The notes under the pieces were generated by a model. It searched no databases. It saw only the letters and a list, made by a program, of their open reading frames with translations, and had not been told where the DNA came from. The position numbers and the translations under genes are program-made. A stretch of 64,000 nucleotides of DNA from the IMG/VR virus record IMGVR_UViG_3300012007_000001, positions 32,001-96,000 of that record; one strand, written 5' to 3'. Of this stretch, positions 7,940 to 46,520 are shown one piece after another (position 1 is the first letter of the stretch; every line of letters starts with the position of its first letter). This DNA comes from a virus (lineage: Duplodnaviria > Caudoviricetes).

Positions 7940-9295
7940 TTATTTGATTGCAATCTTACTATTCTTCTTTGTCACCTTTAGATTCTTCACTATCTTACCC
8001 AGCAGCTTGCCGAGCGTGTAGTAGCGGGCAGCGTCGATGGCATGGTTCCACTTGTCAACTGGCACGTTGATATAGTTGCCATCCTTATCCTTATCCCAAA
8101 CGTAGTTGCGCAATTCCTCATGCAGGTCAACAGAATCTTCCGTAACGAAGATGTCATCATAACTCTGCATCTTGTCAATGCCAGCCACGATTGAGCCATT
8201 CGGCTTCTGAACGGGGTATATCATTATTCCACCAAGAGCGATTTCGTCGATGAGTCGCGGGTCTGCACTATCGGCGAACACCATCAATCCGCTATACGGC
8301 TTCAGGAACTCTATGATGTCCTTTGACAGCATTCCAGTCCTGTAGCACAGCAGTTTTATATAAAGCCTGTTATCCCATATTCCGCACATCACGATGGCCG
8401 TTGGGTCATGCGTATATCCGAAGTCGATACCCAATGCAACGTGCTTGCACTGCGTCGGGAACTCCTTCACGATGCCCCATTTCTTGAACACAGCACCTTC
8501 CGCAACATCAGCCCACTGCCCCATGACGATGTGCGCATATCTTTCGGGGTCTGTTCGCTTCATGGTTTCCACGTTCTCGATGAACTGCGGGGAAAGGTTC
8601 TCTATGTTGTCGAGGTATGTCGTATGGATATGAAGCACGTCGGGATGCGTCGAAATCTGAACTGGTACACCGTCGAAGTATTCAATCCTGTGCGTGTCCT
8701 TTATATATTTCTGATAGATGAAGTGTCCGCTGTCCGTCGGGTTCATCACGATGATGATGAGGTTCTGAATGCCCAATGTACGGATGGAAAGCATGATTTT
8801 CTCAAAGTCATCAAACGAAGTCCACTCTTCCGCTTCATCACAGACGAACACCGTCAGGCCGTGGATTGATTTCAGCTTTGCCGTCTGATTGCCCGATGAG
8901 GTCTTGATGCCTCGGAACATGATATGTGAGCCTGTCTGACGGTTGATGACATCCTTCTTTGTGGCACGGAAATACTTCTGCGTACCCTCCATCTCTATCT
9001 TCTCCAAAAATTCGGGGATGACAGAAATATCGGCTGACACCATCGTATAGCGGGCGCAAAGAATCTGATGTGCAAGCAATTTGGCTTCATCACGCGGACT
9101 CGGCACGGCTTCAAAGGTCAGGCGTTCCAAGAAGGTTTCGACATTGAAAGACTTACCGCTTCCACGACCTCCAGTGACAAGCACAATCATCTTTCTGCCG
9201 TTGTTCAGATAGAGAGGATGGTAAACAGGCTGCACCTTGATACCCTTGCGCACCTGCTTCCGTAATACCTTCCGTCTATCTGCTACCCTTGTCAT
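7940..9295 (-). CDS. terminase large subunit (PBSX family)
   Basis: GGRGSGKS Walker A, VCDEAEE Walker B, GIDFGYTHDPTA, NHAIDAARY. Confidence 0.95.
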   Translation of the reverse strand: MTRVADRRKVLRKQVRKGIKVQPVYHPLYLNNGRKMIVLVTGGRGSGKSFNVETFLERLTFEAVPSPRDEAKLLAHQILCARYTMVSADISVIPEFLEKIEMEGTQKYFRATKKDVINRQTGSHIMFRGIKTSSGNQTAKLKSIHGLTVFVCDEAEEWTSFDDFEKIMLSIRTLGIQNLIIIVMNPTDSGHFIYQKYIKDTHRIEYFDGVPVQISTHPDVLHIHTTYLDNIENLSPQFIENVETMKRTDPERYAHIVMGQWADVAEGAVFKKWGIVKEFPTQCKHVALGIDFGYTHDPTAIVMCGIWDNRLYIKLLCYRTGMLSKDIIEFLKPYSGLMVFADSADPRLIDEIALGGIMIYPVQKPNGSIVAGIDKMQSYDDIFVTEDSVDLHEELRNYVWDKDKDGNYINVPVDKWNHAIDAARYYTLGKLLGKIVKNLKVTKKNSKIAIK

Positions 9296-11667: not shown

Positions 11668-12336
11668 TTAGTTTGAGCCGCCCAAAGCTGTACGCAAGGC
11701 AGCTGCTATGGTGTTCCCGCTTCCTCGGCGCAATACCCTTTCGCGGTCACTCATCATCCTATCCCAATCATCGTATGTCTTAACCCTGTCAAGGTTGATT
11801 TCCCTGCTTGGGTTATAGCTTCGCATCATTGCCGACAATCCTTTTGGCAGGGTCATGGCAACGACGGGAAGGCGTGTGCGCCCATCCCAATCAGACGGTG
11901 CTAAATCGTCATCCCATTCTACTTTTCCGATGGCTTTAGCACCATATTTCGCATACATATTCTGTAATCCACCACCATAGCAATCCAGCTTTCGGCCACC
12001 CCTTGCAGAAGCAAATGCCATGATGTTGGGCATCCTTCCGCGTGTCCTGCTGAAAACGGCCTCTACATTGCCGTCACTTGTTATGGCGAGTCCTGTCTTG
12101 TGGTCTTTAGAAAGGTAATAAGCCGTGCCACTGTTACGGTTATTCCTGAACTGTTTCTTTGTATGGGTATCAACCATCCAGCCGTGCCTGTTTTTCTTCT
12201 TGGCATAGTTGATGGCGTTTTTGAAAGCCCTTGGCGTTGCACGCTCAAATTCTACGTGAGAATGCCGAATACCCTTTCTTGTTAGGGCATTCTCGACACG
12301 CTTGTTTGCTTTTTCAATATCGCTTATGTACCTGAC
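11668..12336 (-). CDS. 222-aa basic protein, possible GNAT-like fold; proposed GTC start at 12336
   Basis: frame stays open 53 codons upstream of annotated ATG 12177, back to GTC preceded by TGA; 13 nt after upstream stop; VFS..GGRKLDCY..L..MYAKYG..WDD..AP.DW. Confidence 0.65.
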   Translation of the reverse strand, partial: VRYISDIEKANKRVENALTRKGIRHSHVEFERATPRAFKNAINYAKKKNRHGWMVDTHTKKQFRNNRNSGTAYYLSKDHKTGLAITSDGNVEAVFSRTRGRMPNIMAFASARGGRKLDCYGGGLQNMYAKYGAKAIGKVEWDDDLAPSDWDGRTRLPVVAMTLPKGLSAMMRSYNPSREINLDRVKTYDDWDRMMSDRERVLRRGSGNTIAAALRTALGGSN

Positions 12337-12349
12337 TCAGCCGTTCCGA

Positions 12350-12714: not shown

Positions 12715-12969
12715 TTAGCCCTCAGAGCCTGCGGCAGCACGAAGGGCGGCAGAGCGCAAGGCTGCACCACGAACACCACGCGCACGCATAGCGGCTACGT
12801 TCTGACGTGCTTGTCGGGCGAATGCCACACGAAGGTCTTGACGACGCTGTTCACGGTTTCCCCAACCTGCACGGCCTTCCGCATAGCGGCCACCATTTGC
12901 CAGTCGGCGACTACCTGCACCGTTCACGTTTGACGTGACACCAGTGATTCGATTGATTCTGTTTCTGAC
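12715..12969 (-). CDS. 84-aa Arg/Ala/Gly-rich basic protein; proposed GTC start at 12969
   Basis: VRNRINRITGVTSNVNGAGSRR...; GTC preceded by TGA, same GCTGAGTCAG context as 12336. Confidence 0.65.
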   Translation of the reverse strand, partial: VRNRINRITGVTSNVNGAGSRRLANGGRYAEGRAGWGNREQRRQDLRVAFARQARQNVAAMRARGVRGAALRSAALRAAAGSEG

Positions 12970-13001
12970 TCAGCATTCAAATTAAAGGGTTCTACATTAT
13001 G

Positions 13002-13412
13002 TTAGTTGTCTGAATGGGCTTCCTGTTCCCCGTCGAAGATTTCACAGTTCTCCGTCTGCAATACTTCGCCGAGTTCATACTGCATCTGCGTAACATAGTA
13101 GGTCTCGCCGTTGTCAACGAATGTAAGCGGCTCACCAGTCTTTTCGTCATCCATCTGAACGACCTTAATCCCGATGACCTGTACCAGCAGGCGGGGGGCA
13201 TTCTTCTGACGGCCATTGATAAGCTGCAAGGCATCATAGCCCACAACCTCGACATCGCTTGTGCCGTCGCCGTTGTCCTTTTCCACCAAATACTGCTTGG
13301 CGTTACGCGGGTAAACAAATCGGTGCTCGACCTTCTGCTCACCCTTCAAGATTTTCTTGAAACTGTCGCGCTTGATTTGTAGCGTCAGTACATCTAATCC
13401 TTCTAAATTCAT
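13002..13412 (-). CDS. ASCH/PUA-like domain protein
   Basis: LTLQIKRDSFKKILKGEQKVEHR (GxKxxExR-like); YDALQLING. Confidence 0.75.
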   Translation of the reverse strand: MNLEGLDVLTLQIKRDSFKKILKGEQKVEHRFVYPRNAKQYLVEKDNGDGTSDVEVVGYDALQLINGRQKNAPRLLVQVIGIKVVQMDDEKTGEPLTFVDNGETYYVTQMQYELGEVLQTENCEIFDGEQEAHSDN

Positions 13413-13445: not shown

Positions 13446-13518
13446 TTGCGGGAGCAGGGCTCGAACCTGCGACCTCCAGTAAGTCAGACTGTTAAGCTAC
13501 CAACTGCTCCATCCCGCG
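13446..13518 (-). tRNA. initiator-type (tRNA-fMet-like) tRNA with GAC (Val) anticodon
   Basis: 73-nt cloverleaf CGCGGGA TG GAGC AGTTGGTA GCTT A ACAGT CTGACTT ACTGG AGGTC GCAGG TTCGAGC CCTGC TCCCGCA A; C1:A72, A11-U24, U37. Confidence 0.85.
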
Positions 13519-13526
13519 ATTTTCGG

Positions 13527-13534
13527 CAAAGTTA
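13527..13534 (-). promoter_or_regulatory. -7 promoter element for the tRNA/ASCH operon
   Basis: TAACTTTG 8 nt upstream of tRNA position 1. Confidence 0.6.
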
Positions 13535-13823: not shown

Positions 13824-14759
13824 TTACCATTCCGCAAAGATGTTATGACTGGCATCAACGACTTGCTCGGAGTACTGAACACGGCAATCCACCTTGTTTC
13901 TGATGCTGTCTTTCCAGTATATCTTAGACTTCGGGGCTTTCGCTGCCACAATCTCCTGCACGTCATTGACGAACTTCACTATGCCGTCAAGCGTGATGGG
14001 CTTCTTGTTGTGCTTCTTGCCGCTTTCCAGCCCTATCTTATAGACATCGCAGAATCCCAATGATTCTTTTATCATCTCCAGCGAATCATCCAAGTCTATC
14101 ACAGGCTCGATGCTGGCAAAGGTATGAACGCCGTATTCCGCGCTAATTCTCGCCATTGCATCCACACGCTGCATATTCGTTGACGCATTCGGCTCAAGGT
14201 CATCCCTGCCTGTCAGCGTGAAACCGACGCACAGGTTCTTACCGCCATTGACCAGCAGACGATGACCACCGATTCCGTACACCCACTCAGAGCGTTTCGT
14301 CAGCATGGTAACTGGCACTGGAGGCAAATCGTTTCTTCTGCTTCCGTCCTCGTTACATCCCAACGCGATATAGGCACACCGCATGAATGTATAGAAGGTG
14401 TCTAACGGCTGCTGTAGGCACGGGTCACTGCTGAACGTGAAGAAGATTCCACGGCCATCTACCATGATTCTATCCCTGTACCTGTTCAGTTCCTTCTCAA
14501 ACACTTGCACGGCCTTGTTACATCCGACAATGAATGCGAGTTTTCTTGAAGCGTCGCAGTCATTCTTGAATTTGACATCCTTTGCCGTCAGCTGAAACTC
14601 CTTTTTCAGTTGAGGGATTTTCTGACCCATTCCGTGACCTAACACACCTTTCTTGCAGTAGCAATACTCACAGTCATTTGAACACCCGACAAAGATATTT
14701 GCCGCCCAAGGAGCGTATTCACGGGCTTTGCCCGATGGCTGATAAATAATCTTTCCCAT
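13824..14759 (-). CDS. radical SAM protein
   Basis: GCSNDCEYCYC (CxxxCxxC), SSDP, LTK, SIEPV; start at MGKIIY. Confidence 0.85.
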   Translation of the reverse strand: MGKIIYQPSGKAREYAPWAANIFVGCSNDCEYCYCKKGVLGHGMGQKIPQLKKEFQLTAKDVKFKNDCDASRKLAFIVGCNKAVQVFEKELNRYRDRIMVDGRGIFFTFSSDPCLQQPLDTFYTFMRCAYIALGCNEDGSRRNDLPPVPVTMLTKRSEWVYGIGGHRLLVNGGKNLCVGFTLTGRDDLEPNASTNMQRVDAMARISAEYGVHTFASIEPVIDLDDSLEMIKESLGFCDVYKIGLESGKKHNKKPITLDGIVKFVNDVQEIVAAKAPKSKIYWKDSIRNKVDCRVQYSEQVVDASHNIFAEW

Positions 14760-14760
14760 A

Positions 14761-14979
14761 TTACTGAAACTTAGAAAAATCCTTCTTGAAAACGACAAAC
14801 TTACCGTCAGTCCGTGCCTTGCACTTGCCAATCTGCGCACGCACAGAATCTACTTCGCAATGCTTCTGCTTCCTGACCACCTTTCCGTGAAAGAAACATC
14901 CACGGCAGAACGAGTCAGCCTCCTGAACTTTCATACGAACACCGTCACAGGTGAACACATCATTAATCGGCCTTTCCAT
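14761..14979 (-). CDS. small Cys-rich protein (paralog of 33214-33423)
   Basis: MER.I..V...KV.E...C.GCFF...C....G.C...R.DGK.V.F. Confidence 0.65.
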   Translation of the reverse strand: MERPINDVFTCDGVRMKVQEADSFCRGCFFHGKVVRKQKHCEVDSVRAQIGKCKARTDGKFVVFKKDFSKFQ

Positions 14980-33964: not shown

Positions 33965-34105
33965 TAGAGGGAGCAGGGCTCGAACCTGCGACACACACAA
34001 TCCATGTGTAACTTCATGTATGCGAGGCTGCTATTCTTGCGCTCGTATTTACAGCCATCCTCCCGTTCCATATACGGGTGTGCTAACCAACTACACCATC
34101 CCCCT
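33965..34105 (-). ncRNA. tRNA-like RNA with about 70-nt variable-region insertion (anticodon position ATG)
   Basis: acceptor AGGGGGA/TCCCTCT, D arm GTGT/GCAC, anticodon arm CCCGT-ATATGGA-ACGGG, T arm GCAGG-TTCGAGC-CCTGC. Confidence 0.7.
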
Positions 34106-46141: not shown

Positions 46142-46157
46142 CTTCTTTTCCGTTTAG

Positions 46158-46228
46158 TTGGAGAAACGGGAGTCGAACCCATACAAACAGACCCAAATTC
46201 TGTTGTGCTACCATTACACCATTCTCCA
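46158..46228 (-). tRNA. tRNA-Gln (TTG)
   Basis: TGGAGAA TG GTGT..GCAC A ACAGA ATTTGGG TCTGT ..ATGGG TTCGACT CCCGT TTCTCCA A. Confidence 0.9.
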
Positions 46229-46448
46229 GTATGACGGCCTTTTGAGCCGCCCACCTTGAACACCGCCAATGTCGTCACCGTCAACAGCCGCAGGATTTAA
46301 GCGGACATCCACCCACATGCTACCCTTTCCGATTTTTTGGGGATTGCGCAGATACTCTCACATGCTTTAGGCTCGCTTTCGGTATAGGTCGCGCCCCTTA
46401 ACGCTTCCAAATGTACTCGCTTGTGGTGCGTGTTCTGATACAAGACTG

Positions 46449-46520
46449 TACCCCATGCAAGAATCGAACTTGCCTTGACAGGTCGAAAACCTGTAGTCCT
46501 AACCGATAGACGAAAGGGGC
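46449..46520 (-). tRNA. tRNA-Glu (TTC)
   Basis: GCCCCTT TC GTCT..GGAC T ACAGG TTTTCGA CCTGT ..GCAAG TTCGATT CTTGC ATGGGGT A. Confidence 0.9.

Follow-up and report, generated by a model that had tools for sequence, protein, structure and literature searches.

We suggest that the gut phage to which this DNA belongs carries a dedicated initiator tRNA with the valine anticodon GAC, which would be charged with valine and would start two phage genes at GUC; comparison of the sequences makes this reading probable. The wider proposal, which we also favour but with somewhat less assurance, is that phages of Bacteroidota, and some others, run natural private start codons. Their initiator tRNAs would have re-written anticodons (GAC and AAC, with single-site hints of ACU and CCU), and U37-U38 would pair with a fixed GA in front of the codon, so that in a few genes at the head of the packaging module an extended start signal of 5-6 nt would take the place of AUG, and perhaps also make the three G-C pairs unnecessary. 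The odd anticodon arm of the tRNA looks like a working part of such a private start-codon system rather than like decay.

To our knowledge, all known natural translation starts with a CAU initiator tRNA, and the non-AUG starts GUG, UUG and AUU are near-cognate readings by this same tRNA. A full-text literature search, with incomplete coverage, found no natural non-CAU initiator tRNA in phage or cell, only engineered ones. If the proposal is true, this would be the first natural reassigned start codon and a natural counterpart to the orthogonal initiation systems that have been built in E. coli since about 1990. It would then also explain a class of phage genes that are truncated by gene callers, and provide a natural test bed for pairing beyond the triplet (37/-1 and 38/-2) and for the dispensability of the three G-C pairs. 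The tRNA and its start sites would further be ready-made parts for orthogonal expression in Bacteroides.

The tRNA gene and its family

The window, i.e., the whole stretch of 64,000 nucleotides analysed here, is bases 32001-96000 of a 119,237-bp virus record with direct terminal repeats that is rated 100% complete. In a rough gene set for the whole phage genome, 151 of the 177 genes are on the minus strand, as is the tRNA gene, which is 73 nt long and runs from 13518 to 13446. Under table 11, 88% of the genome is taken up by open reading frames of at least 100 aa, so another genetic code need not be assumed. The tRNA and its surroundings contain the following features.

13446..13518, minus strand: initiator-type tRNA with the valine anticodon GAC, 73 nt, no encoded CCA (ARAGORN; Rfam, 49.8 bits; covariation in 20 homologs)
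13481..13487, minus strand: anticodon loop CUGACUU, with G34 A35 C36 at 13485-13483, then U37 and U38 (direct reading; YU-RAC-UU kept in all family members)
13527..13534, minus strand: TAACTTTG, a putative promoter element that matches the Bacteroidota -7 box TAnnTTTG, 8 nt before tRNA position 1 (direct reading)
13002..13412, minus strand: 136-aa gene with an ATG start, phrog_625, unknown function, 33 nt after the tRNA, which it follows in four lineages
7940-9295: terminase

Also encoded in this region are the small subunit of a terminase, a PAPS-reductase-like protein and a ParB-like protein. A radical-SAM-like gene (CxxxCxxC; window 13824-14840, minus strand), which is 92% identical in a sister phage, lies immediately upstream of the tRNA. 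In 25 other viral contigs, relatives of this gene (about 36-45% identical) are found without any tRNA near them, so it is not tied to the tRNA. In two related phages, the large terminase genes (L066:8094-10556 and L071:12328-14694) contain intein or homing-endonuclease domains.

ARAGORN calls the gene tRNA-Val(GAC), and its score against Rfam RF00005 is 49.8 bits compared with a cut-off of 29, with a full cloverleaf over model positions 1-71. The acceptor, D and T arms are intact, as had been said in a preliminary description of this DNA. The acceptor is CGCGGGA/UCCCGCA, in which C1·A72 is unpaired and is followed by G2:C71 and C3:G70, and the D stem consists of G10·U25, A11:U24, G12:C23 and C13:G22. 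After A73 comes CAA, i.e., no CCA is encoded; this is ordinary, as the tRNA genes of a rumen Bacteroidales genome (one genome) also lack it. The anticodon stem contains the mismatch A27·G43, then C28:G42, A29:U41, G30:C40 and U31:A39, and the loop is C32 U33 G34 A35 C36 U37 U38. Three consecutive G:C pairs at 29-31:39-41 are absent from the window tRNA, and only the middle pair, G30:C40, is retained. The mismatch, the missing G-C motif, the pyrimidine at 37 and the missing CCA had all been listed in the preliminary description and were read correctly there, and the promoter-like TAACTTTG indeed lies where it had been placed. This element is identical in the two closest lineages and is conserved there only.

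The 5' 23 nt of the tRNA gene are the same as in 12 phage tRNA-Met(CAU) genes, and its best matches in INPHARED are genes annotated as tRNA-Met; no relative of the phage was found in INPHARED, the match being limited to the tRNA itself. An exact search of viral contigs with the 17-nt anticodon arm gave no match. Over its whole length the tRNA is 75% identical to the initiator and 74% identical to the tRNA-Pro of the rumen Bacteroidales genome, and since whole-length identity does not discriminate, the assignment to the initiators rests on specific marks. The non-Watson-Crick 1:72 as well as G2:C71, C3:G70 and A11:U24 agree with an initiator, but the CAU anticodon and the methionine identity of an initiator are lacking, the anticodon being GAC. 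An elongator tRNA-Val(GAC) would share GAC and A73, but the body of such a tRNA, with a paired 1:72, a pyrimidine at 11 and purine at 24, a purine at 37 and likeness to the host tRNA-Val, is not what is found here (C1·A72, A11:U24, U37), and the tRNA-Val(GAC) of a Bacteroidales genome differs from it in body as well as in arm. As the tRNA lacks CAU and the three G-C pairs and also lacks the elongator tRNA-Val body, we class it as a variant initiator tRNA, which would work as i-tRNA(GAC) and i-tRNA(AAC), both engineered, do.

Bacterial tRNA-fMet, including the CAU copies carried by phages (L033-L046), resembles the phage tRNA in the unpaired 1:72, G2:C71, C3:G70, A11:U24, A73 and the D and T arms. 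However, it has the anticodon CAU instead of GAC, a stem of GC/GC/GC instead of au/GC/ua and AA instead of UU on the 3' side of the loop, and charging with methionine is not expected for the phage tRNA. In the rumen Bacteroidales genome, the initiator has C1·U72, A73 and the same GAGC D stem as the phage tRNA, together with three G-C pairs and the loop CUCAUAA, and its gene also ends without a CCA. The idea that the anticodon arm was grafted from a tRNA-Val was dropped, as the tRNA-Val(GAC) arm of a Bacteroidales genome is unlike the phage arm.

No CAU initiator gene is carried anywhere in the phage genome, which besides the GAC tRNA encodes tRNA-Gln(UUG), tRNA-Glu(UUC) and an odd tRNA-like RNA. 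The first two look ordinary (window 46157-46228 and 46448-46520, respectively, both minus strand). The third, 141 nt long at window 33965-34105 (minus strand), scores 43.5 bits against the Rfam tRNA model and has a variable region of about 68 nt, where about 5 is standard, with two extra hairpins. It further has G3·U70, the anticodon loop AUAUGGA and the same T arm as the GAC tRNA, and ARAGORN instead reads it as a tRNA-Ala(CGC) with an intron.

Homologs of the GAC tRNA were searched for by pattern, with no more than the D arm, U33 and portions of either the anticodon arm or the variable region held fixed, and further homolog contigs were reached via protein homologs of a neighbouring gene. 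Positions 1-7 and 66-72 were constrained by no pattern. In total, 20 distinct homologs were obtained from at least 10 phage lineages. Across these, 94.5% of the cells in the cloverleaf are paired and 13 of the 21 pairs show a compensatory change; none of 500 shuffles matched this pairing and compensation, and all slid controls were less than 45% paired.

The pair 1:72 is never Watson-Crick in the 20 homologs. It is unpaired in 19 of them and U·G in one, and it occurs in eight combinations (C·A, G·A, U·G, C·U, C·C, U·U, A·A and A·C). Acceptor positions 4-7 vary with compensation, and what is kept is G2:C71 (20/20), C3:G70 (19/20), A11:U24 (20/20) and A73 (20/20). Within the anticodon stem, G30:C40 is present in 16 of the 20 homologs and C30:G40 in three lineages. 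The anticodon loop is YU-RAC-UU in all family members; part of the constancy of U37-U38 is due to one search pattern that fixed these positions, but both bases are also seen in the members that were found by protein homology or by a pattern free at 37/38. The proteins of genes shared by these phages are only 30-66% identical, and that the tRNA has been kept over the same distance argues for a strong constraint on it. Judged from this alignment, the initiator marks of the family are under selection, and the GAC RNA is almost certainly a functional, selected tRNA.

If the window copy were a decaying pseudogene of an initiator tRNA, this could have accounted for its A27·G43, its G10·U25 and its pyrimidine 37. 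However, the loop and the cloverleaf are kept with compensatory changes across phages with 30-66% identical proteins, and A27·G43 is found in only three of the 20 homologs, all of the window's lineage, while the next lineage (L051/L056) has C27:G43. Decay is thus hardly credible. The preliminary description had reasoned that changes confined to one arm speak against random decay, and the family bears this out, with the YU-RAC-UU loop kept and the stems compensated in at least 10 lineages. It had proposed a covariance alignment, in which random loops and decayed stems would count against the idea; the 20 homologs keep the cloverleaf. Its wording that the anticodon arm is systematically non-canonical goes too far for one item, A27·G43, which is specific to one lineage.

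Two genes that open at GUC

The genome was screened for frames that are open far upstream of their first ATG, GTG or TTG, in sequence free of other genes. The top case in the genome is 11668-12177, with 53 open codons upstream, the first of which is a GTC right after a TGA. This gene (ORF2) and a second one closer to the tRNA (ORF1) are the putative clients of the tRNA.

12715..12969, minus strand: ORF1, which encodes a small Arg/Gly-rich protein; 84 codons and a stop, counted from GTC (12969-12967), with GTG at codon 15 as the first canonical start
12965..12974, minus strand: start motif 1, GCUGA-GUC-AG, complementary to the anticodon loop
12350..12547, minus strand: 65-aa gene that lies between ORF1 and ORF2, starts with ATG and is not in the frame of ORF2
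11668..12336, minus strand: ORF2, 222 codons from GTC (12336-12334) plus stop, phrog_2563 with a GNAT-like fold; its first ATG/GTG/TTG is codon 54 (12177)
12332..12341, minus strand: start motif 2, GCUGA-GUC-AG, the same 10-mer as motif 1

The two putative starts are on the strand of the tRNA, at distances of 0.55 and 1.18 kb downstream from it, and share the 10-mer GCTGAGTCAG. RAGTCAR is found at 40 sites in the 119-kb genome, 11 of them followed by at least 40 open codons, and among these 11 only the sites of ORF1 and ORF2 open an ORF directly after an in-frame stop. The sequence GAGUCAG complements the anticodon loop from position 38 to 32 (U38·G, U37-A, C36-G, A35-U, G34-C, U33-A and C32-G).

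In ORF2, codons 1-53 contain no ATG, GTG or TTG. Read from the GTC, residues 33-135 of the protein match positions 8-113 of the phrog_2563 profile, and read from the ATG the match begins only at profile position 47. Homologs of ORF2 in other phages that do start with Met align with residues 1-53 of the window protein, including the motif RV(E/D)xxLxxxG(I/V)xH. Compared with L056, the 53 upstream codons have 3, 6 and 18 changes at the first, second and third codon position, and 16 codon changes are synonymous against 7 non-synonymous. In contigs from gut RNA libraries, seven of the eight differences listed over 12178-12336 are at third positions. The AlphaFold model of ORF2 has a mean pLDDT of 82, and in it a helix at 6-21 and a strand and helix at 30-48, all with pLDDT >90, are placed within the GNAT-like fold; the top Foldseek matches are all GNAT acetyltransferases, although with weak E-values, from 2.6e-3. 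From the profile match, the aligned homologs, codon conservation and the predicted fold, we conclude that ORF2 is translated from upstream of its first canonical start.

Codons 2-14 of ORF1 vary synonymously among the lineages (CGT/AGA, ATA/ATT/ATC and CGC/CGT/CGG), and over the whole of ORF1 the changes between lineages show a third-position bias (11/17/34). By the same type of comparison, ORF1 is probably also translated from its GUC. The public calls of the ORF2 protein start at the ATG or at a later GTG (P0001 and P0002) and are therefore truncated; the database calls are short by 53 codons for ORF2 and by 14 codons for ORF1 (P0001 and P0016). One call counts against the GUC start, i.e., P0017, the ORF1 of a relative, which was called from an ATG four codons upstream with a W where UGA stands. 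Canonical starts are also available in two lineages, with a GTG at ORF2 codon 15 in lineage B and an ATG at codon 5 in lineage D.

Two other explanations for the start regions were set aside. AUU or AUA as the start of ORF2 is unlikely, as these Ile codons are absent there in L068 and the L072-L074/L081/L086 phages. On the short contig L068, on which no tRNA is found, both GAGTCAG sites are present and the N-terminus of ORF2 contains no Ile codon at all, which removes AUU/AUA as the alternative start. A palindromic DNA site (CTGAGTCAG) for a dimeric protein is also unlikely, since the GUU versions of the site are not palindromic.

The UGA directly in front of GUC or GUU at most sites could also suggest that the tRNA is a recoding adaptor, with which ribosomes pass or hop the UGA into ORF1 or ORF2, as the preliminary description had considered. 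The UGA-GUC sequence that it mentioned is real (12972-12967 and 12339-12334). However, the in-frame sequence upstream is closed by further stops 4 and 7 codons away, which marks UGA-GUC as a start site and not as a site of readthrough or recoding. In addition, the upstream 65-aa gene is in another frame, CGA takes the place of UGA at several ORF2 sites, and the genome reads well under table 11. Recoding is thus very unlikely.

In relatives that are >90% identical, most pieces >95%, the tRNA, ORF1 and ORF2 are covered by contigs from RNA libraries (four libraries in three studies, from the gut of cattle and other animals); as these contigs are assembled and possibly derive from DNA carry-over, they show neither transcription nor RNA ends. 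The sequence CCCTTTAA (window 12981-12989, minus strand) is kept 12-20 nt upstream of the ORF1 start in both GAC and AAC lineages. In the window it continues as TAATTTG, and the 8 nt between TTTG and GTC equal the spacing of TAACTTTG to the 5' end of the tRNA. This arrangement may mean that ORF1 is transcribed from a separate promoter, with a very short leader.

GAGTC is found 24 times on the sense strands of the phage genome, against 48 ± 6 under synonymous shuffling, and the controls GACTCA and GAGTGA are depleted too. GAGTC is presumably also a restriction site, and its depletion could reflect either restriction avoidance or avoidance of spurious starts.

Anticodons and first codons across lineages

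The putative starts match their tRNA in each of nine lineages, and no mismatch between anticodon and first codon was found among them. GAC occurs with GTC in four lineages, A-D (the window with L045 and L060; L051/L056; L047/L048/L050/L057; L049/L052). AAC occurs with GTT in L070, the L071-L096 group, L082/L093, L079/L085 and L087. ORF1 and ORF2 open at GA-GUC in the GAC phages. In the AAC phages, the homologous ORF1, about 500 nt after the tRNA and beginning VRRRIxN...NMNGAG, and ORF2 both open at GA-GUU, and L079 has three GA-GUU sites, one of them on a ParB-like gene.

The start codons of the clients sit in (U/C)GA-GUC-A. When the start contexts of ORF2 are collected by protein homology alone (9 distinct contexts), GA precedes the codon in eight and AA in one. 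Two ORF2 homologs that start with ATG (L128 and L129) have no such tRNA within 10 kb on either side. Two further homologs without a canonical start, in L067 (UGA-GUU) and L069 (AA-GUC), are on partial contigs on which no tRNA was found, which counts against the initiator reading.

Only one independent switch of the anticodon is certain, and perhaps there was a second, if L087, in which the tRNA body resembles the GAC group, switched alone. As the switches are few, the nine matching lineages are not independent trials. The weight of the covariation is rather that each switch, as read from the sequences, called for a change in the tRNA together with corresponding changes in two or three genes.

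The match between loop and start sites could also be explained by a tRNA-shaped regulatory RNA, whose loop pairs with GAGUCAG off the ribosome in a kissing or antisense interaction, or which lures away a host factor that binds tRNA. The loop complements the sites over six to seven bases, and the covariation between position 34 and +3 fits simple pairing too. However, U33 normally forms the U-turn and does not pair, and the start regions contain no special RNA structure, being no more structured than shuffles (z +1.3 and +0.7). The conserved acceptor marks, i.e., the unpaired 1:72, G2:C71 and C3:G70, would be left without a reason. A pure guide or antisense role, as put forward in the preliminary description, would moreover leave ORF1 and ORF2, two conserved genes, with no start codon. 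We regard a regulatory RNA as unlikely.

Slightly less probable again is an elongator tRNA-Val derived from an initiator ancestor, which would either supply the decoding of GUC/GUU or resist a host anticodon nuclease. Valine identity is consistent with GAC and A73, phage tRNAs that evade host nucleases through changes in the anticodon loop have been described (PMC10264068), and U37 and U38 could be changes of this type. In that case an elongator body is required, though, which the GAC tRNA does not have. A single substitution at 1:72 would create a good EF-Tu substrate, but in 20 homologs this pair is never Watson-Crick, and A11:U24 is retained. AAC, with an unmodified A34, is not a bacterial elongator type, the anticodon arm differs from that of the Bacteroidales tRNA-Val(GAC), and the use of valine codons in the phage is unremarkable (GTT 15.2, GTC 15.4, GTA 11.7 and GTG 20.3 per 1000). 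The covariation with the first codons of genes that lack a canonical start would also be unexplained. A decoy for anticodon nucleases, another suggestion of the preliminary description, likewise accounts neither for the always unpaired 1:72 nor for the covariation. All three alternatives raised there are less likely than initiation itself.

Three other tRNAs (L075:12115-12187, L088:11058-11131 and L094:2939-3011) have phage initiator bodies with an unpaired 1:72 and U37-U38, and the anticodons ACU or CCU. In L075, UGA-AGU opens a 120-codon ORF 97 nt from the tRNA start, and in L088, UGA-AGG opens a 67-codon ORF without any canonical start 151 nt from the tRNA start. By their sequences, these three may be the same system with other codons. 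A further three initiator-type phage tRNAs (L078:1208-1280, L083:10610-10683 and L097:3894-3966) keep CAU but have U37-U38, not A37-A38.

Proposed mechanism and known systems

We suggest that the anticodon of an initiator tRNA was changed from CAU to GAC, and that the tRNA would thereby have become the dedicated start tRNA of ORF1 and ORF2. The valine identity set is A35, C36 and A73, by which the host ValRS would charge the tRNA with valine. In E. coli, the unpaired 1:72, G2:C71, C3:G70, A11:U24 and A73 are read by the formyltransferase and keep the tRNA off EF-Tu. By extrapolation from E. coli, which also applies to the charging, the host formyltransferase would recognise the unpaired 1:72, G2:C71 and C3:G70 and formylate the GAC tRNA, and IF2 would place it in the P site on GUC. 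U37 would then pair with A(-1) and U38 perhaps with G(-2) of the mRNA, and the resulting extended codon-anticodon helix may compensate for the weakened stem of the anticodon arm as well as for the missing Shine-Dalgarno sequence.

The main difficulty for initiation is the absence of the three G-C pairs. In E. coli, these pairs license the step from 30S to 70S; the middle pair G30:C40 suffices, whereas E. coli is not sustained after a change to C30:G40 (PMC5389676). Only two of the three pairs are present in several phage-borne initiator-type tRNAs with CAU that share their 5' half with the GAC tRNA. It is also puzzling that a whole tRNA would be kept for two genes only, and this counts against the initiator reading. 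As to its use, our guess is that it gates or tunes, in timing or dosage, the two genes with which the packaging module begins, or else that their products need valine at the N-terminus.

Engineered initiators come closest to the proposed system. Around 1990, the Schulman and RajBhandary laboratories reportedly engineered an i-tRNA(GAC) that reads GUC. More recently, an engineered tRNAfMet(AAC) was found to initiate at GUU in E. coli with Val or formyl-Val N-termini (bioRxiv 10.1101/2021.05.25.445580). The phage family has the same two anticodons and shares with i-tRNA(AAC) and i-tRNA(GAC) the initiator body, the valine anticodon and the complementary start codon, i.e., there are client genes whose start codon is complementary to the altered anticodon (GUC here and GUU in the AAC sister phages). 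In contrast to the engineered tRNAs, the phage tRNA is natural, phage-encoded and conserved, it is without the full set of three G-C pairs, and it has U37/U38 instead of A37/A38. Its client sites also have a fixed GA before the codon and mostly an A after it.

Pairing beyond the triplet has a precedent in E. coli, where mRNA position -1 pairs with base 37 of tRNAfMet and an A37U mutant prefers the complementary base (NAR 2023, PMC10018350). The likeness is that the base 3' of the anticodon complements the base before the start (U37 and A at -1). However, the effect in E. coli is modest and involves A37 with U(-1), while in the phages the predicted pairing reaches -2 and +4 and is nearly invariant. 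Large gut phages carry suppressor tRNAs that accompany stop-codon recoding. There too a tRNA brought by the phage alters the reading of its own codons, but the suppressors act in elongation and on stop codons, whereas the GAC tRNA would read a sense codon, during initiation and in two genes only.

No formyltransferase, deformylase or IF3 is recognisable in the phage genome, so the phage would rely on host factors. In L070, a gene with the domains Formyl_trans_N and Formyl_trans_C (L070:13692-14245, minus strand; a 410 aa product, cut by the end of the locus) lies beside a phage or prophage that carries the AAC tRNA.
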